Positions 5,653-56,298 of a DNA stretch of 64,000 bases are shown piece after piece (positions within the stretch are counted from its first letter, which is position 1; each line of letters starts with the position of its first letter). Under the pieces are notes generated by a model. The model saw nothing but the letters and a program-made list of their open reading frames with translations, did no database searches and was not told the origin of the DNA. The stretch is from contig CAWBLU010000003.1 of NCBI GenBank assembly GCA_963789725.1, positions 67,170 to 131,169 of the forward strand, in the 5' to 3' direction. Made by a program: the position numbers and the translations under genes. This stretch comes from an uncultured Chloroflexia bacterium. Lineage in GTDB: Bacteria; Chloroflexota; Limnocylindria; Limnocylindrales; CSP1-4.

Positions 5653-5728
5653 GCCGACGTAGCTCAATTGGTAGAGCAGCGGTTTTGTAAACCGCCGGTT
5701 CCGGGTTCGAGTCCCGTCGTCGGCTCCA
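5653..5728 (+). tRNA. tRNA-Thr (anticodon UGU)
   Basis: Cloverleaf: acceptor GCCGACG/CGTCGGC, D-arm GCTCAATTGGTAGAGC, anticodon stem GCGGT/ACCGC with loop TTTGTAA, T-loop TTCGAGT. One C-T mismatch in the T-stem. CCA is encoded. Confidence 0.8.
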
Positions 5729-5782
5729 ACTGAAGAAGTCAGCCGTTGTAGGGGAACCCACCGCAGCGGCTGGCAGTCTCGT

Positions 5783-5867
5783 GGGTAGGTTGAGCAGGTG
5801 GTGAGCTCAGCTGACTGTAAATCAGCCGCCTTCGGCTGTAGAGGTTCGATTCCTCTCCTGCCCACCA
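5783..5867 (+). tRNA. tRNA-Tyr (anticodon GUA), class II with a long variable arm
   Basis: Acceptor GGGTAGG/CCTGCCC, anticodon loop CTGTAAA, long variable arm, T-arm AGAGG-TTCGATT-CCTCT. CCA is encoded. Confidence 0.8.
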
Positions 5868-5891
5868 CCTTGGTATCCGACCCGGTCTCGG

Positions 5892-5967
5892 GCCCTCATA
5901 GCTCAGCTGGCAGAGCGCGTCCTTGGTAAGGACGAGGTCATCGGTTCAAGTCCGATTGAGGGCTCCA
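5892..5967 (+). tRNA. tRNA-Thr (anticodon GGU)
   Basis: Acceptor GCCCTCA/TGAGGGC, D-arm GCTCAGCTGGCAGAGC, anticodon stem CGTCC/GGACG with loop TTGGTAA, T-arm ATCGG-TTCAAGT-CCGAT. CCA is encoded. Confidence 0.85.
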
Positions 5968-7512: not shown

Positions 7513-7588
7513 AGGCGCCTAGCTCAATTGGTAGAGCACTGGTCTCCAAAACCAGCGGTTGTGGGTTCGAGTCCCGCGGCGCCTGCCA
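7513..7588 (+). tRNA. tRNA-Trp (anticodon CCA)
   Basis: Acceptor AGGCGCC/GGCGCCT, anticodon stem CTGGT/ACCAG with loop CTCCAAA, T-arm GTGGG-TTCGAGT-CCCGC. CCA is encoded. It lies between rpmG and secE, as in many Gram-positive bacteria. Confidence 0.85.
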
Positions 7589-48935: not shown

Positions 48936-49625
48936 ATGGCCGGCCCGTCGCAGCGATCGGACTCGGACGACGACCGCGGCGCACCGGGCGACGGCGCCGC
49001 GGCCGAAGTCGCAGCCGCAGCCGGCTCCGCCGCAGGCCTGGCGGCCGGCGTGCCGGCTCCTCCGCCGGAGACTACCGAGCTCGGGATCGACATCATTCGG
49101 GTCTCGAGAATCAAGGACTCACTGGCCCGTTTCGGCGATCGGTTCACGAATCGCGTCCTGACTCCAACCGAGAGCCGCTACGTCCGCGGCCGTCCGGAGA
49201 CGATGGCCGGCCGCTGGGCCGCGAAGGAGGCAGTCTCGAAGGTGCTCGGACTGGGCGTTCGCGGCATCGGGTGGCGGGACATCGAAATCGAGCGCCTGCC
49301 CACCGGCCAGCCCGCGGTCAAGCTCCACGGCCGGGCGGCCCGGCGGGCCGAGCAACTCGGCATGGGCCGAGTAGCGATCTCCATCAGCCACGAGTCCGAG
49401 TTCGCCGTCGCGATCGCCTACGGCGTCAGGACGGCAGGCGGCCGCTTCCTGTACCCACCCGACATCGAGGAGCGCCTGAGCGAGCGTGAAGCCACTCTGA
49501 TGCGTCGTTTCGAGCGGCTGCGCGGGCTTGCCAGGGATGTCGCGGTCGGCGAAGCTGAGTTTGGCGCTGGAGCAGCGCCACAGAACATCGATCCCGCCGG
49601 CAATGAGGAGGGGACAGATGCCTAG
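48936..49625 (+). CDS. acpS: Holo-[acyl-carrier-protein] synthase with N- and C-terminal low-complexity extensions
   Basis: Core motifs LGIDIIRVSRI, GRWAAKEAVSKVLG, WRDIEI and ISISHE. The ~45-aa N-terminal and ~70-aa C-terminal extensions are unusual. Confidence 0.75.
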   Translation: MAGPSQRSDSDDDRGAPGDGAAAEVAAAAGSAAGLAAGVPAPPPETTELGIDIIRVSRIKDSLARFGDRFTNRVLTPTESRYVRGRPETMAGRWAAKEAVSKVLGLGVRGIGWRDIEIERLPTGQPAVKLHGRAARRAEQLGMGRVAISISHESEFAVAIAYGVRTAGGRFLYPPDIEERLSEREATLMRRFERLRGLARDVAVGEAEFGAGAAPQNIDPAGNEEGTDA

Positions 49626-50634
49626 CCGAGTCCTTCCGGAGCCGATCCTCCTGGACGATGCCGCGGCCGCCGCGCTTCTGCCACCGCGACCAGCCCGCGG
49701 CCACAAGGGCACTTTCGGGAAGCTCCTGGTCATTGCCGGTTCGGTCGACTATGCCGGCGCTGCCTTGCTCGTCTGCACAGCCGCCGGGCGGGCAGGGGCT
49801 GGGCTCGTCACCCTGGCCACGCCGGAATCGCTCCAGCCGCTGTTCGCCGCCAAGGTCGTCGAGGCGACCACGCTCTCGCTGCCCGAAGACGACGTGGAGG
49901 AGGTCGATCCGGAGGAAGCCCTGGCCCGCATCCTCGACCACGACCACGACGCTCTCGTCGTCGGACCGGGCCTCCGTCCGAGCCTATCCATGACCGAACT
50001 GATACGCGGCTTGCTCGGCCCCGATGAGGACGGAGAGCCGGTGCCGGCCGTGCTCGACGCCGAGGCCCTGAGGTCGTTGGCGACGGTGGACGGTTGGGCC
50101 GCCGACGTTGCCGCCCGCTGCGTCCTGACGCCTCACGTCGGGGAGTTCCTGCGGCTTCGGGCCGCGGATGGTGCCGACACCCACGAGCAGGGTGACCTCG
50201 TATTCGACGATGCGCGTCGACTGATCGCGGCTCGTGAAGCGGCCAGAGAGTGGGGCCAGGTAGTCGTCCTCAAGGGCGCCCGCACGGTTATCGCCGATAA
50301 GGACGGCCGCGCTGCGGTCTCTCCTTTCGAGAACCCGGCCCTGGCAAGCGCTGGCACCGGCGACGTGCTTTCGGGAACGATAGGCGCGATGCTGGCCCAG
50401 GGCCTTGGCACGTTCGAGGCCGCCCAGTTGGGCGTCTACCTTCACGCCATGGCGGGCGAGGCCGTCAGGGCCCGCATCGGTGATGCCGGCCTGCTCGCGT
50501 CGGACCTGGCCCCCGAGCTGCCGCTGGCCCGCAAGAGGCTTGCGGCCATGCCCGGCGCCGGCTCAGCCGCGACCGTGGCCGCGGCATCCGGCTCGGGACC
50601 GGCAACCGCCTCGACACGTCGCGCCCGCCGATGA
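49618..50634 (+). CDS. nnrD: ADP-dependent (S)-NAD(P)H-hydrate dehydratase (YjeF C-terminal domain only)
   Basis: Motifs HKGTFGKLLVIAGS, VLKGARTVIAD and ALASAGTGDVLSGTIGAMLAQG. The ATG at 49618 follows GAGGAGGGG. There is no N-terminal epimerase domain. Confidence 0.8.
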   Translation: MPSRVLPEPILLDDAAAAALLPPRPARGHKGTFGKLLVIAGSVDYAGAALLVCTAAGRAGAGLVTLATPESLQPLFAAKVVEATTLSLPEDDVEEVDPEEALARILDHDHDALVVGPGLRPSLSMTELIRGLLGPDEDGEPVPAVLDAEALRSLATVDGWAADVAARCVLTPHVGEFLRLRAADGADTHEQGDLVFDDARRLIAAREAAREWGQVVVLKGARTVIADKDGRAAVSPFENPALASAGTGDVLSGTIGAMLAQGLGTFEAAQLGVYLHAMAGEAVRARIGDAGLLASDLAPELPLARKRLAAMPGAGSAATVAAASGSGPATASTRRARR

Positions 50635-52001
50635 CCGTCGCCGGCGAAGCCGGGCCCCGAGTCACCGCTACCCGCCTGCCGTTGATCGAGGCCGGGCCCG
50701 GGGGCGTTCTCCCGCCTGTGCCAAAGACCGCCTGGCTCGAGATCGACATGGACGCATTGGTGGCTAACGCGCGGCTCCTTGCCGGCCTGCTGCCCCAGGG
50801 CGCTCGGCTCGAGCCGGTCGTCAAAGCCGACGCCTACGGCCATGGTTCCGTGGCCGTGTCGCGACGCCTGGTCGAGGCCGGATTCACCAGCCTGGGCGTT
50901 GCCACATTCGACGAAGCGCTGGAGTTGCGCCAGGCCGGCGTCGACGTTCCGATCCTGATCCTGTTCCCCATCCCGGCTGAGCTCGCTCCCGATGCCCGGC
51001 GGCAGGGCCTGTCGATAACTGCCGGCGACCGAGATCTCCTGGGCCGGACTTTGGCTGCCCTGGCCGCCGCACCCGAGGCAGCGGTTGGAGCCTCAGATGG
51101 GCGGAGCGGGCGGCTGAGCGTGCACCTCGAGGTGGAAACGGGCCTTGGACGCGGCGGCGTCGCGCTTGACGAAGTCGCCCGGGCGGCCGAGGCCATCGAG
51201 GCCAGCCCGCATACGCGTCTGGCCGGCGTGTGGTCCCATCTCCAATCCGCCGGCGATGCCGGCATAACGGCGCTCCAGGACACGCGCTTCGGGTTGGCGT
51301 GGCGGATGCTCGAGGCGGCCGGGGTGACTGTGCCGTCGCGGCACCTTGCCGCCAGCGGCGCGCTGCTCGCAGCCACTTCGGGGACATACGACGTGGCCCG
51401 GGTGGGCATCGCCATCTACGGCTACGTCCCGGACGGCATGGTCACCTCGCCGGAGAGCGGCACGGTGGTGGCGGGGTTGAAGCCGGTCATGTCGTTGCGC
51501 GCCCGGCCGATCCGCGTGGCCTGGCTCGAGGCCGGGACGGGCATCAGCTACGGACCCAGCTTCACCACGACGCGCAGAAGCCTCATCGCCACTCTGCCGC
51601 TCGGATACGCGGACGGTTTTCCTCGAAGCCTTTCCAACAAGGCCCACGTCCTGGTACGCGGAATGCGCGCACCGCAGGTCGGAACGGTCGCCATGGACGC
51701 ACTGATGGTGGATGTTACGGACGTACCGGGTCCCGACGTGACCATTGACGACGAATTCACGCTCATCGGGGAAGAGGGCGGAGAGCGAATTACCGCCACG
51801 GATGTGGCGCGTTGGGGCAACACCATCTCCCACGAGGTCATGGCCGGGATGTCCGGGAGGTTACCCCGGGTGTACTATGCGGCAGCCGAGGCAGTCGGGA
51901 TTCGGGCAATAGCCAGCGACGCGGATCGGGGCTCGGGGGACCGCGCCGATCGCCGGCGGCAGGCATCCGTCGAAGAGCAGCGCCCGTCAGGCATCGAGTG
52001 A
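50631..52001 (+). CDS. alr: Alanine racemase (with a ~55 aa C-terminal extension)
   Basis: The PLP-binding Lys sits in VVKADAYGHG, and the catalytic Tyr region is IAIYGY. The ATG overlaps the nnrD stop. Confidence 0.9.
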   Translation: MTVAGEAGPRVTATRLPLIEAGPGGVLPPVPKTAWLEIDMDALVANARLLAGLLPQGARLEPVVKADAYGHGSVAVSRRLVEAGFTSLGVATFDEALELRQAGVDVPILILFPIPAELAPDARRQGLSITAGDRDLLGRTLAALAAAPEAAVGASDGRSGRLSVHLEVETGLGRGGVALDEVARAAEAIEASPHTRLAGVWSHLQSAGDAGITALQDTRFGLAWRMLEAAGVTVPSRHLAASGALLAATSGTYDVARVGIAIYGYVPDGMVTSPESGTVVAGLKPVMSLRARPIRVAWLEAGTGISYGPSFTTTRRSLIATLPLGYADGFPRSLSNKAHVLVRGMRAPQVGTVAMDALMVDVTDVPGPDVTIDDEFTLIGEEGGERITATDVARWGNTISHEVMAGMSGRLPRVYYAAAEAVGIRAIASDADRGSGDRADRRRQASVEEQRPSGIE

Positions 52002-52035: not shown

Positions 52036-52326
52036 TTGATCGAGCTACAGGGCCGCTCAGAGGAGCAGCGCGACGATCTAGTGGAGCAGGTTGCCCGAGA
52101 GATCCAGTTGCGCGGCCTGACCGCCCCCGCAGTCCTGTTCTTGCAGGCGAGCCGGCCGTATCGCCCTCTCGGCAGCAGCGCCATGGTCTTCTTCGATCCC
52201 ACGCTGCGTCGGGTCTTCGGGGGCGAATTGCCTGTGGCGACCGAGATCCTCGCCGACGACCTGGGCATCGAGCAGCTCATCGAGCGATTGCAGGATCCGG
52301 ACGAGGAAATCTCCTGGGACGCTTAG
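52036..52326 (+). CDS. Hypothetical small acidic protein (96 aa)
   Basis: TTG start 7 nt after GGAGAG. High in-frame GC3. I recognise no family. It is the first ORF of a 4-gene insertion between alr and tsaE. Confidence 0.45.
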   Translation: MIELQGRSEEQRDDLVEQVAREIQLRGLTAPAVLFLQASRPYRPLGSSAMVFFDPTLRRVFGGELPVATEILADDLGIEQLIERLQDPDEEISWDA

Positions 52327-52396: not shown

Positions 52397-54274
52397 GTGA
52401 GCACCCAGCCCCGAGCCTTTCTGGCCCTCGACTGCGGCTCCTCCACCACCTCCGGAGCGGTCCTGGGGCACGTGGGCGGCCGCTGGCGCCTCATCGCCCA
52501 TGCCTCGGCCCCCGAGCATATCGACGGCGATGCCATCCTCACCCGCCTGCTGACCCAGATCGGGCAGACCGACTCGGGCATGCTGACGGATATGGGCGTT
52601 GCCGGCGCCGACATCCCGATGGCGGTCGCGACGTGGCCCAGACTCGTGGCCAGGACCTCTCCGGAACGCCGGATCGCCGTCCTGGCAGGCTCGCGCCGGC
52701 AGCTGCGACGGCTCGAGTCCGCCGCAATTAGGGCCGGCTGGCTGGTCGTGGGCGGCAGCGCCGATGAAGACGACCCCGTTGCCCTGAGCCGTCTCGCCCT
52801 GTTCCCGGAGACCGCCGCGGTGCTTCTGGGCGCCGATCGCTCGCCCGGCGGTGACGAGAAGCGCCATCTGCCGGAATTGGCCGCGCTCGTGGCCGCCGTG
52901 ACCCGATCTCGGCCCGAGCTGGCCGTCGTGCTGGCCGGTGGAGCGGCGGCCTATGAATCCGTCTTCGCCGCCGTGACCGAACCTTGGGCCGTGCCGTCTG
53001 TGTACGAGCCCGCCGCCACGGCCGTCGTACGCGACGGCGACGACGTCACGACAACGGGCGACAAGGAAGCGGGTCAATCGAAACTCGCGTCGACGATTGC
53101 GGTAGCGAACGCGCAAGAGCCGGCCGCCGATGAGCCTTTCGAAGAGGGCGTGGGCGCGGCGTCAACCACGACCGACGCCGCGGCCCGGGAAGCGGGTTCG
53201 GGCTCGCCAGCCGTCTACCAGCCCGCGGAAGCTCCCGCCGCGCCACACATGCTGCTGGCCCCGGATGCCGAGGCCGGCCACCCGGCCGGATCGTCGCTGC
53301 AGCAGGTGCTCGAGGGGCTCCGAGCCCTGCCGAACGACAGCCGCCTCGGGATCGCGCGGTCGATTGCCTCGCTGGCTTATGTCCTCGACCGATCGATCGA
53401 GGTCGTCGAGATCGGGCTTCAGGGGGGCCTGCGGGCAAGATCGGAGCCTTTCGGCCAGGACCACTACGCGGTCGTTTCTTCGCAGGCGTGCCCGGCCGGA
53501 GCATCGTTTGCCCCGGCCGATCCCTCTGAGGACGTGATCGACGGGGTTCTGTCCTGGTCGACGGCAGTGCTGGACCGTCATCGAGCGATGGACCGACTGA
53601 ACGACGTGCGGCTCATTCCCTGGGGTGAGGCGGACGGCGACGGCGCGGCGTTCCGGCTGGCGGCCGCCAAGGCGGCTGTCGAGCGCCTCGTCGACGTCAC
53701 GCCCGAGATGGCCGATCGGCCTCTGCCCGAGCTGCTCGTCGCCGCCGGTGGCGTCTTCTGCGCCCTGCCGCCGTCCGTTGTGGCTTTGGCCCTGGCCGAT
53801 CTGGTCCGGCGGCCCGGTGTCGCGCATCTCGCCATCGACCAGGCCCGCATCCTGGCGCCGCTCGGCGCGATCGAGGACGAGACCGAGCGGCGGCGCCTCA
53901 TCGCGAATCTGGCCGACGACATCCTGATGCCGCTCGGCAGTCTCATCCTGCCCGCCGGAATCAAGCCGGGCCGCAGCGCCGGCCAGCTCCGGCTCAAGGA
54001 TGCCGTGACGACGTCCGAGATCGAGTTGCATCCCGGAGTGGTCCAGGTCATCGACCTTCCGCCGGGCCGAACCGGCAGGGCCGACCTCGACTTCCGCGAT
54101 GCGGTCCGGCTGCCGGCACGGGCCCGTCACTTCTCGGTCGAAGTCGGGGGCGGGCTGGGGGGCCTGCTGGTGGACCTGCGCGACATCCCGATGCGCATAT
54201 CGGATCGCCCCGACACGCGGAGGGCGGCGCTGGAGGCCTGGCAGCGCGGCATGTGGCCGGAGACGGACGAGTGA
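52397..54274 (+). CDS. Hypothetical protein with ASKHA (actin/Hsp70/sugar-kinase)-like N-terminal motif, 625 aa
   Basis: FLALDCGSSTTSGAVL resembles the phosphate-1 loop (DxGxT/S) of ASKHA ATPases. Later Gly-rich motifs are LAVVLAGGAAAY and LVAAGGVFCALPP. A ~90-aa acidic disordered linker lies in the middle. Confidence 0.5.
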   Translation: MSTQPRAFLALDCGSSTTSGAVLGHVGGRWRLIAHASAPEHIDGDAILTRLLTQIGQTDSGMLTDMGVAGADIPMAVATWPRLVARTSPERRIAVLAGSRRQLRRLESAAIRAGWLVVGGSADEDDPVALSRLALFPETAAVLLGADRSPGGDEKRHLPELAALVAAVTRSRPELAVVLAGGAAAYESVFAAVTEPWAVPSVYEPAATAVVRDGDDVTTTGDKEAGQSKLASTIAVANAQEPAADEPFEEGVGAASTTTDAAAREAGSGSPAVYQPAEAPAAPHMLLAPDAEAGHPAGSSLQQVLEGLRALPNDSRLGIARSIASLAYVLDRSIEVVEIGLQGGLRARSEPFGQDHYAVVSSQACPAGASFAPADPSEDVIDGVLSWSTAVLDRHRAMDRLNDVRLIPWGEADGDGAAFRLAAAKAAVERLVDVTPEMADRPLPELLVAAGGVFCALPPSVVALALADLVRRPGVAHLAIDQARILAPLGAIEDETERRRLIANLADDILMPLGSLILPAGIKPGRSAGQLRLKDAVTTSEIELHPGVVQVIDLPPGRTGRADLDFRDAVRLPARARHFSVEVGGGLGGLLVDLRDIPMRISDRPDTRRAALEAWQRGMWPETDE

Positions 54275-55497
54275 GTGCCACGGACCGGGTCGAGGCTGTC
54301 GGCGCCGCCGCGGACCTGGCTCGCATCGCCGGCCGGCGAGTCCTGGTCTTCTCGCCCGTGATTCGCTACCGGCTGGAGCCCGGCGATCGCGCCCTCGTGG
54401 CTCCCGGCGACGCCGTCGAGCCCGGCGCGCCGATCGCGGAGCGGACTCTCGAGGCCGAATTCGTGGAAGTCGGCCGCATCGCCGGGCCCGACGAAGGCGA
54501 GCAGGCCCGGCGGGAGGGCGCGGCTCCGACGAGCGGGGGCAGTTCCCTGGCTCGCCTCTGGGCCGAAGTCGAGGCCGAGCACGCGGAGCCGCGCGAGGGA
54601 GATCGCCCGCAGATGGCCGCGCGATCCGACCGACGACTCGGCCCCCTGCGCGAGGAGCGCCGCCGCCCGCCGGCCCCGGGCAAGTGGTGGGTTGGCGGCG
54701 GCGAGCGGCGCGATAAGCAATCCGGCGGGAAGGCAGTACTCCGACTCGGCGGGACGCTCCTCTTCGAGGCCAACGGACGTTGGTATGCCGCGGCCGGAGA
54801 CCGCCATGAGATCGTCGAGTCGCCGGTGGCCGGAGTCGTTCGTGAGGCCCGAAACGGCGTCGAGGTGACGATCCAGGTTGCCGGTACCGCCCTGCCGGGC
54901 GCAATAGCGGCCGGCGAGCCCTCTCGAGGGTATCTCGACGTGCCCCGCCTGACCGACGGCGACCTGTGGGCCAGCGCGCTCGACGTCGGCCGCGCCGGCG
55001 CGGTCGTGGTTGCAGGTACGCGCCTGTCGGGCCAGGCGATAAGCCGGGCCAGGGCCATGTCCATCCGCGGCCTCATCGCCGGCTCCGTCGGCGAAGGCGA
55101 GTTGCGCGATCTCGAGGCGTCCAGGCAGAGGCAAAGGGCCAGCCTGGCGCCATCTGTTTCGTTCGGGCTGATCGCCCTCGACGGCCACGGCCGCCGGCCT
55201 CTCGCGACGCCAATCCTGGCCCTTCTGGCCGCGATGGCCGGCCGCGAGGTGGCGATCGTCACCGACCCGCCGCTGGTCGTCTTCGAGGCGGCCGAGGTGC
55301 CGCTGCCGGAGCTCCCGCCGGACTGGGTCCGCGCCCGCAGTGGACCGCACGCCGGCCGGGAAGGCCGCTGGTTGAAGTCGGCCGGGCCGTATCGCTTCCG
55401 CGCCGGCATCCACCTCGAGGGGGCGGTCGTCCGCTTCGTCGACGACACGGACACGACGATCGTGCCGGTGACGGATCTCGAGCGTTTCGTCTTCTAG
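54271..55497 (+). CDS. Hypothetical protein with two lipoyl/HlyD-like barrel-sandwich motifs separated by charged disorder, 409 aa
   Basis: The motifs are ALVAPGDAVEPGAPIAE and SPVAGVVREARNGVEVTIQVAG. The start is either the GTG at 54271 overlapping the upstream stop (GTGA), or the in-frame ATG at 54253. Confidence 0.45.
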   Translation: MSATDRVEAVGAAADLARIAGRRVLVFSPVIRYRLEPGDRALVAPGDAVEPGAPIAERTLEAEFVEVGRIAGPDEGEQARREGAAPTSGGSSLARLWAEVEAEHAEPREGDRPQMAARSDRRLGPLREERRRPPAPGKWWVGGGERRDKQSGGKAVLRLGGTLLFEANGRWYAAAGDRHEIVESPVAGVVREARNGVEVTIQVAGTALPGAIAAGEPSRGYLDVPRLTDGDLWASALDVGRAGAVVVAGTRLSGQAISRARAMSIRGLIAGSVGEGELRDLEASRQRQRASLAPSVSFGLIALDGHGRRPLATPILALLAAMAGREVAIVTDPPLVVFEAAEVPLPELPPDWVRARSGPHAGREGRWLKSAGPYRFRAGIHLEGAVVRFVDDTDTTIVPVTDLERFVF

Positions 55498-55509: not shown

Positions 55510-56298
55510 TTGGACGCGAATGGAGATGCGCTACCCGCGCCGCCCACACCGATTCGGACCGTGGCCGACCTGGTGACGACGCTGAACGGGCTGACCGACC
55601 GACAGCGGCGCGGCTTCGGCTACTGGGTCGACCCGAAGGCCCTCCTCGTGGGACCGGCCCGGTCCCGGAGATCCTCCCGCGAATTCCGGGCCGCGACCCG
55701 CGCATACGACCGCTTGGGCGACGCGTCGCTCACGCGGGAAGAACGGACCGCGCTGCGTCGGAGAACCGTCGACGAAGCCTGCTGGTACGAAGGCGGTCAG
55801 GTGGTGGGCCGGCTGGCCGATGCCATCCGGCTCGAGGACAGGGATTCGCTGGAGCGCCTCGCGCCGGCGCTGCAGTGGCTCCAGGAGGCCGCTTTGACCG
55901 GGGCCGACGAAGTCCCGATAGCCATTCCAGCGGCCGCGTCCGATGCGTCGGTCGACGGGCCGGTAGGGTTGGCTGCCGCCGTGTCCGCTCCGATCAGCGA
56001 ATTCGAGCGCAGGTTCCGCGGCCCGCTTTGGGGCCTGAAGGGCGCGGCCCTGTTCGGAGTCGTGTGCACCCTGCCGTTCTTCTCGAAGCCGTCGCTGGCC
56101 ACGCCGCTGGCCTCCTTCGGCCCGCCCGCCGCGGCCTTCGTCGTGGGCACAGCGTGGCTGCTGTCGATAATGCGACTCATCCACTGGCTCGGGCTGAAGT
56201 CAGAGTGGTCGCTCGTATTGAAGCGACGAGTCCTGATCGCCGCCTTCCTGGCCGGTCCGGTGGGAGGCCTGGTCGTGGCCCGCATCGTCGCCGGCTGA
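55510..56298 (+). CDS. Hypothetical membrane protein (262 aa, 2-3 C-terminal TM helices)
   Basis: Hydrophobic segments AALFGVVCTLPFF, AAAFVVGTAWLLSIM and VLIAAFLAGPVGGLVVA. It starts 12 nt after the previous ORF. Confidence 0.45.
   Translation: MDANGDALPAPPTPIRTVADLVTTLNGLTDRQRRGFGYWVDPKALLVGPARSRRSSREFRAATRAYDRLGDASLTREERTALRRRTVDEACWYEGGQVVGRLADAIRLEDRDSLERLAPALQWLQEAALTGADEVPIAIPAAASDASVDGPVGLAAAVSAPISEFERRFRGPLWGLKGAALFGVVCTLPFFSKPSLATPLASFGPPAAAFVVGTAWLLSIMRLIHWLGLKSEWSLVLKRRVLIAAFLAGPVGGLVVARIVAG

Follow-up and report, generated by a model that had tools for sequence, protein, structure and literature searches.

A stretch of 64,000 nucleotides from an uncultured Chloroflexia bacterium of the Limnocylindrales (GenBank assembly GCA_963789725.1, contig CAWBLU010000003.1, positions 67,170 to 131,169 of the forward strand; hereafter the window, with a G+C content of about 70 %) carries, between alr and tsaE, a gene for a 625-aa protein with an ASKHA-type phosphate-1 loop. 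The gene is flanked by an open reading frame (ORF) for a small acidic protein upstream and one for a larger partner protein downstream, and these three genes form a cassette that recurs in related loci. As regards family membership alone, sequence comparisons place the 625-aa protein very probably in the GlmL/MutL branch of the ASKHA proteins, as a strongly diverged member. The gene and its parts are laid out as follows:

52397..54274, + strand: MutL/GlmL-like ASKHA protein, 625 aa; ORF with a GTG start, the main gene under study
52397..52975, + strand: N-terminal half, residues 1-193, with an RNase-H-like beta-beta-beta-alpha unit and then a Rossmann-like block (AlphaFold, conservation)
52418..52459, + strand: phosphate-1 loop, residues 8-21, F-L-A-L-D12-C-G14-S-S-T-T-S-G-A, between strands E7-13 and E17-26 (conservation)
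52976..53248, + strand: acidic disordered linker, residues 194-284, 91 aa, with an AlphaFold predicted local distance difference test score (pLDDT) below 50; hypervariable in alignment A1
53396..53443, + strand: candidate phosphate-2 hairpin, residues 334-349, I-E-V-V-E338-I-G340-L-Q-G-G-L-R-A-R-S, at the start of the second beta-beta-beta unit
53723..53776, + strand: candidate adenosine motif, residues 443-460, LPELLVAAG451G452VFCALPPS, with strand E446-450 and then helix H459-470
53942..54271, + strand: C-terminal extension, residues 516-625, with a beta-rich domain and the invariant tail GGLxGLLVDLRDxPxR...RR..L..W, beyond the end of the MutL profile

In the ORF list with translations, the N-terminus of the 625-aa product is exactly FLALDCGSSTTSGAVLGHVGG, and the N-terminal stretch AFLALDCGSSTTSGAVLGHVGG quoted in an initial annotation of this DNA is found in the product of 52397..54274; the two Gly-rich segments quoted there, LAVVLAGGAAAY and LVAAGGVFCALPPS, correspond to residues 175-186 and 447-460, respectively. 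The codon-position G+C of the ORF (0.77/0.54/0.84) agrees with that of the neighbouring genes, its first 25 codons included. The public record for this gene, P0001, is an exact copy annotated as a 600-aa protein starting at V26 (GTG at 52472), which makes it 25 residues shorter, and the DxG phosphate-1 loop is consequently lost from the public annotation. The longer N-terminus, read from 52397, is conserved in 22 of 27 aligned homologues. Homologues and codon usage thus support a start at 52397 over one at 52472.

Residue conservation was counted in an alignment of 152 distinct sequences. The initial annotation had recognised a DxG phosphate-1 loop at the N-terminus, and the counts bear this out: position 12 is D in 145 of 152 sequences (E in three, a gap in four) and position 14 is G in 147, while a sister clade of the family, described below, carries DIGSAWTK at this place. 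Being kept across the 152 sequences, the loop is far beyond a chance match. Elsewhere in the N-terminal half of the family, G114 and G181 are invariant and W115 is found in 151 of 152 sequences. The segment LAVVLAGG, previously put forward as the phosphate-2 motif, has to be given up for that role, since it forms the last strand (E176-181) of the Rossmann-like block of lobe I; the second unit is instead opened by IEVVEIGLQGG, in which position 338 is E in 86 and D in 40 of the 152 sequences and G340 is kept in 150. The earlier choice of LLVAAGG for the adenosine motif, a strand at 446-450 followed by a helix, remains plausible, with G451 kept in 143, G452 in 134 and P458 in 146 of the 152 sequences. 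Both the phosphate-2 and the adenosine positions were assigned from model topology and not from structural superposition. Further downstream, D481 and D508 are invariant (152/152). The protein thus carries the phosphate-1 DxG, an acidic-x-Gly hairpin opening lobe II, which is phosphate-2-like, and an adenosine-like Gly-Gly, as ASKHA proteins do.

The structure of the protein was modelled with AlphaFold2 from a 27-sequence alignment, giving a mean pLDDT of 59.6 (about 80 in the N-terminal half, below 50 in the linker, intermediate in the C-terminal half and poor at residues 470-521 and 596-625). In this model, a first beta-beta-beta-alpha unit spans residues 7-58, with its strands within 7-39, and leads into a Rossmann-like block with four beta-alpha units at 82-194. 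A second beta-beta-beta unit follows the linker (E335-339, E344-352, E356-365), and downstream of it come helices, the strand at 446-450 (LLVAAGG), a helix, a beta-rich region at 529-593 and a terminal helix. A Foldseek search against the PDB returned 46 matches at E <= 0.001, with a best E of 3e-5, probabilities up to 1.0 and template modelling (TM) scores of 0.2-0.45. All 50 listed PDB matches are ASKHA proteins, namely PilM, DnaK/Hsp70/BiP, FtsA, ParM and BcrAD/HgdC-type activators, and the strongest matches in the viral structure library BFVD are viral Hsp70 homologues. A two-lobed ASKHA-like fold is therefore supported, with the caveat that the model has a mean pLDDT of 59.6 and TM-scores of 0.2-0.45. 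The initial annotation had proposed an ASKHA fold and would have abandoned it if the predicted fold were of another type or if the DxG motifs were not conserved; the predicted fold is ASKHA-like, and DxG is kept in the orthologues.

Among these structural likenesses, Hsp70/DnaK shows the same order of parts: a nucleotide-binding domain of the ASKHA type, then a beta-rich domain and lastly a helix. It contributes many of the Foldseek matches, including the viral homologues. However, the alignments have root mean square deviations (rmsd) above 20 A, no Pfam HSP70 match was found in the window protein or in 32 relatives, and the likeness of the C-terminal part is one of order, not of fold. PilM and FtsA supply the best and recurrent matches (5eoy, 3wt0, 1e4g), yet at TM-scores of 0.2-0.35 and without membership in their sequence families, and they have no counterpart of the Rossmann-like block and the C-terminal domain of the window protein.

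Direct scans of the 625-aa protein and its three neighbours against Pfam, NCBIfam, PHROGs and PADLOC returned no family. For the Pfam MutL family (PF13941, gathering threshold 27 bits) the 625-aa protein had no match even at E <= 1, and it had no hit with the NCBIfam model NF040745 (equivalog cut-off 475 bits). When the PDB sequences were queried with the single protein, with the family profile and with that of the sister clade, they gave chance-level matches only (haemoglobin, pilin and, at E 0.023, MoaB). Over 300 relatives were found in a large protein collection, all called 'hypothetical protein' and devoid of Pfam domains, those with a named source being Candidatus Limnocylindrales. A profile search of 1.8 billion representatives gave 604 clusters, 119 of them below 1e-30, and many of these relatives have only 525-580 aa because they are without the long linker.

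The link to a known family came through divergent relatives. When 32 of these were scanned one by one, four matched PF13941, among them P0247 with 39.7 bits (threshold 27) and P0239 with 23 bits, and the window-clade profile itself matches P0247 with 112 bits (E 2.8e-27). A search seeded with P0247 led to the sister clade, Limnocylindria proteins of about 550 aa with precomputed PF13941 hits, some of which NCBI calls 'glutamate mutase L'. One of its members, P0325, aligns with PF13941 over profile positions 2-437 of 450 (115 bits, E 4e-33). In hhalign, the window clade (A1) and the sister clade (A6) align with a probability of 99.7 % (E 2.5e-25); the aligned region comprises 512 columns and runs from the DxG loop to the C-terminal tail. 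The two clades share one locus position in the gene tables read. The MutL hits of the sister clade and the hhalign result together place the window protein in the MutL/GlmL lineage, not as a GlmL equivalog. The earlier statement that the protein has no recognisable family thus holds for direct searches and fails once the sister clade is brought in; among the families that the initial annotation had listed, GlmL-type chaperones are the branch that applies. The case shows that intermediate orthologues can recover a family when direct hidden Markov model scans fail. To our knowledge, few ASKHA ATPases have been studied as little as the GlmL/MutL proteins, which are known solely as presumed helpers of B12-dependent mutases.

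Through the sister clade, the window protein resembles GlmL/MutL (PF13941; TIGR01319 glmL_fam; NF040745) over the whole ASKHA core, including the type of the N-terminal DxGSxxT(K) loop and an N-terminal lobe with a Rossmann-like block. It differs in lying below any Pfam or NCBIfam threshold, in having no glmS/glmE or ornithine aminomutase genes nearby and in adding about 110 C-terminal residues, the 91-aa acidic insertion, a partner with a sandwich-barrel hybrid motif (SBHM) and a KOW-like barrel, and the small acidic protein.

The linker and the C-terminal extension have different distributions. The linker, rich in Ala, Thr, Glu and Pro and with a net charge of -11, is 85-150 residues long in the window's subclade only, and most relatives have 6-7 residues at this place. 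The long form is thus a late, subclade-specific insertion into a contiguous ASKHA protein; the initial annotation was right that an acidic disordered linker of about 90 residues is present, at 91 residues and pLDDT < 50, and the linker is not the defining oddity that had been made of it. The C-terminal extension has strands at 529-593 and a helix at 605-616 in the AlphaFold model, and all 152 sequences share G585, G586, G589, D593 and R595. In the sister proteins, which have 549-558 aa, the MutL profile stops at about residue 410-424, so that the final 110 or so residues are an addition common to both clades. Searched alone, the extension has no Pfam or PDB sequence relative, and its fold was modelled without confidence.

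The other two members of the cassette lie on either side of the ATPase gene, and the partner is divided into the following parts:

52036..52326, + strand: small acidic protein, 96 aa, net charge -10, C-terminus ...EEISWDA; ORF, first gene of the cassette
54271..55497, + strand: partner protein, 408 aa, with an SBHM, an unassigned alpha/beta middle domain and a KOW/SH3-like barrel; ORF, equal to the annotated P0389
54355..54885, + strand: SBHM, partner residues 29-205, with a charged insertion at residues ~72-131 (profile match, AlphaFold)
55318..55485, + strand: KOW/SH3-like barrel, partner residues 350-405 (AlphaFold pLDDT 75-86; Foldseek)

By tblastn, the small protein is encoded in 86 of 88 other loci, always upstream of the ASKHA gene, and the partner directly downstream of the ATPase in 84 of 88; the loci that are without one or the other are mostly those where the contig ends. 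The small protein had no family hit in Pfam, NCBIfam, PHROGs or PADLOC. With 54-96 % identity it is better conserved than either of the other members, the ATPase having 32-66 %. The GTG start of the partner gene (54271), which agrees with that of the annotated P0389, overlaps the ATPase stop codon as GTGA, and the two genes are thus translationally coupled. In the window's subclade, the partner insert is about 65 residues longer than elsewhere (126 versus 49-67 residues between two motifs).

The partner itself belongs to no Pfam or NCBIfam family. A search with its profile returned the SBHM insert of Thermus RNA polymerase beta' (E 1.6e-4) and, as weak matches, the KOW proteins uL24/eL26; the SBHM strands are modelled at a pLDDT of about 80, and the middle alpha/beta domain (residues 205-347) is not confident. 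Foldseek returned many KOW domains, including those of Spt5 (target TM 0.6-0.8, rmsd 1.5-3.4 A), as well as uL24/eL26 and T. maritima NusG (E 4.8e-4), and a weak Pfam KOW match was seen in four of ten partner-family members. The combination of SBHM and KOW barrel is thus like that of Thermotoga/Aquifex NusG and the Thermus RNA polymerase beta' insert, whereas the partner has no NGN domain and a different alpha/beta middle domain, and the matches are weak (Foldseek E 4.8e-4, TM 0.14-0.16). The middle domain alone found no relative in a PDB profile search. Two candidate assignments within the partner were dropped: a PEP-utiliser-type 'swivel' for the middle domain (motif RARAMGVRGIVVG) is unsupported by Pfam scans and PDB profile search, and DGHGRR does not fit the B12-binding motif DxHxxG, its His not being conserved and the consensus of the relatives being DGx. 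One partner homologue, P0466, has been named by JGI 'DNA-binding NarL/FixJ family response regulator', a name without Pfam support; all other homologues are 'hypothetical'.

The tight coupling of the two genes, together with their metabolic neighbourhood, could also be taken to mean that the window protein is the ATP-using subunit of a two-subunit metabolic enzyme (a hydantoinase, oxoprolinase, carboxylase-like enzyme or kinase) and the partner its second subunit. There are many kinases among ASKHA proteins, and the GlmL family (TIGR01319) is said to resemble the hydantoinase branch of the hydantoinase/oxoprolinase family. We nevertheless hold this to be quite improbable, as Pfam and NCBIfam gave no match to Hydantoinase_A/B or to any kinase family, the SBHM and KOW-like modules of the partner are typical of protein or nucleic-acid binding and not of catalysis, and no substrate pathway is obvious from the context.

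In the window, the gene order is nnrD, alr, the 96-aa ORF, the ATPase, the 408-aa partner ORF, a 262-aa ORF, tsaE and tsaB, with these further features:

49528-50634: nnrD
50631-52001: alr
55510-56298, + strand: 262-aa ORF between the partner gene and tsaE, with a codon-position G+C of 0.71/0.56/0.84 (gene-like) and a hydrophobic C-terminal half

According to the gene table, the cassette is part of a wider run, cdaA-cdaR-glmM-glmS-acpS-nnrD-alr-(cassette)-tsaE-tsaB-rimI-tsaD-ksgA-ispE-ridA-glmU, and its arrangement recurs in the gene tables of homologous loci with 64 %, 40 %, 33 % and 26 % identity. In about 90 related loci, the cassette stands between alr and tsaE. Scanning a collection with a single genome for each species gave 358 matching stretches, almost all titled Chloroflexota or Limnocylindria. 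Three of the loci come from metagenome-assembled genomes titled Isosphaeraceae (L032), Saccharimonadales (L058) and Verrucomicrobiia (L069), 50-53 % identical to the scan query, which was the first sequence of alignment A4; as this identity is like that of Limnocylindria loci, these contigs have probably been misbinned. We take the cassette to be a core housekeeping feature of the class Limnocylindria, not a glutamate mutase accessory system.

This placement bears on whether the protein is a genuine GlmL-type reactivase whose client, a B12-dependent or other radical mutase, is encoded elsewhere in the genome. ATP hydrolysis would then open the client and allow the damaged cofactor to be exchanged. 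In the loci with gene tables read, no B12-dependent mutase gene lies within 6-7 kb on either side, and in the inspected loci the adjacency to the mutase-subunit genes glmS/glmE that is typical of GlmL proper was not seen, the neighbours being alr and tsaE. The homology to GlmL/MutL favours such a reactivase; the NCBIfam members of characterised context are B12 mutase accessories ('methylaspartate mutase accessory protein GlmL', 'GlmL-related ornithine degradation protein'), and MutL has been presented as a reactivation chaperone (PMC4682846). Nevertheless, the fixed place of the cassette within a housekeeping gene run, the wide miss of the GlmL equivalog cut-off and the length of the GlmL models, at about 460 aa without the extra C-terminal domain and the dedicated partner, add to the missing mutase gene in making this explanation unlikely.

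Three layouts of the cassette were distinguished. The first is alr-ATPase-partner-tsaE (L007, L090); the second, that of the window and most loci, is alr-(macro)-small-ATPase-partner; and the third, found in part of the sister clade, is small-DUF6754-three membrane proteins-ATPase-partner, with overlapping starts. A macro-domain gene between alr and the small gene was seen in L004 (5089-5628), L089 (2270-2800) and L091 (3195-3761) and is absent from the window. The membrane genes of the third layout, one DUF6754 gene and three multi-transmembrane genes without a family, occupy 2797-6001 in L089 and 3758-7004 in L091; they are absent from the window and from all other loci compared.

That the ATPase gene of these sister loci follows membrane-protein genes adds a likeness of context to the structural likeness to PilM and FtsA. 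The four genes between the small and the MutL genes, with their overlapping starts, would suit a PilM/FtsA-like membrane-proximal scaffold, or a cytomotive ASKHA protein, that organises an envelope-assembly complex by binding a short conserved segment of a partner, either the small protein or the membrane proteins. PilM is also the best Foldseek match, with FtsA and ParM present as well, and genes for cell-wall precursors (glmM, glmS, alr, glmU) surround the cassette. However, neither the window's clade nor the minimal loci L007 and L090 have the membrane genes, the TM-scores are low, and Pfam scans of the window protein and 32 relatives gave no sequence-level relation to PilM, FtsA, MreB, actin or ParM. 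The homology leads to a family not known to polymerise, and within the actin superfamily MutL is classed with the families that form no polymers (PMC5597319). We therefore consider a scaffold of this kind doubtful, and the cytomotive role that the initial annotation had entertained found no positive evidence.

The explanation that we prefer, although taken as a whole its chances are about even, is that the window protein works together with the partner and the small protein as an ATP-driven module for chaperoning or assembly. ATP would bind in the cleft between the two lobes. As in Hsp70 and in the reactivases of B12 enzymes, lobe closure driven by the nucleotide would serve to hold a protein client, to remodel it or to release it, with no phosphorylation of a metabolite. 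The immediate client or co-factor would be the product of the overlapping downstream gene, the partner, for which the invariant C-terminal tail, modelled at low confidence, may serve as a docking element. The B12-enzyme reactivases DdrA/PduG and EutA, whose families are grouped with the MutL family in the actin superfamily (PMC5597319), would by analogy share the principle of an ASKHA ATPase acting as chaperone of another protein. They differ in that they show no sequence match to the window protein and are not among the 50 listed Foldseek matches, and no B12 enzyme is near the window gene.

Several points tell against the chaperone or assembly module and its GlmL/MutL ancestry. The sister clade scores 42-56 bits with the NCBIfam GlmL models, far below their cut-offs of 204-475, and when the family was compared by hhalign with TsaD and TsaB, which are ASKHA proteins encoded in the same loci, no significant match resulted (E 0.6-0.8). 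The model is modest (mean pLDDT 59.6, TM 0.2-0.45), and the lobe arrangement and active-site geometry cannot be judged from it. It is the gene arrangement alone that suggests a physical interaction of the ATPase with the partner or the small protein. ATPase linker length correlates with partner insert length (Spearman 0.80), but this essentially reflects a single phylogenetic event or clade, and there is little direct evidence for the chaperone role of GlmL itself.

A more far-reaching version of the chaperone module is conceivable, although we think it improbable: a class-wide, ATP-driven three-gene machine in which the tail would dock on the SH3/KOW-like barrel, with, for example, the ribosome, RNA polymerase or an envelope-synthesis complex as core target, and which the small acidic protein would join, as would a DUF6754 membrane complex in some lineages. 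If true, this would be a chaperone or assembly system of a new kind, with no relation to B12 enzymes. For the cassette as a whole, the comparisons indicate that a GlmL/MutL fold was recruited class-wide into a fixed three-gene cassette within a housekeeping run, with a new C-terminal domain and new partners, in abundant, uncultured soil and freshwater Chloroflexota (Limnocylindria). They point to a conserved cellular function missed by annotation, in which the proteins are 'hypothetical' and the public record is truncated with loss of the ATP-binding loop. Nothing known is overturned; a known fold is met in a class-wide unannotated cassette, and we found no specific literature on Limnocylindria ASKHA proteins, PF13941 or DUF6754.

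Outside the three-gene cassette, the 262-aa ORF (55510-56298) had no family hit and no homologue in the other loci compared. It was considered as a fourth cassette member and ruled out, being absent from all other loci by tblastn, and looks like a lineage-specific inserted gene. Elsewhere in the window, a tRNA cluster (Thr-TGT, Tyr-GTA, Thr-GGT) lies at 5653-5967 (+) and a tRNA-Trp at 7513-7588 (+). Between about 6 kb and 40 kb, the G+C of the window is lower (~0.65) and the AT skew is positive, and our guess is that this part could be a region of ribosomal-protein or translation genes.

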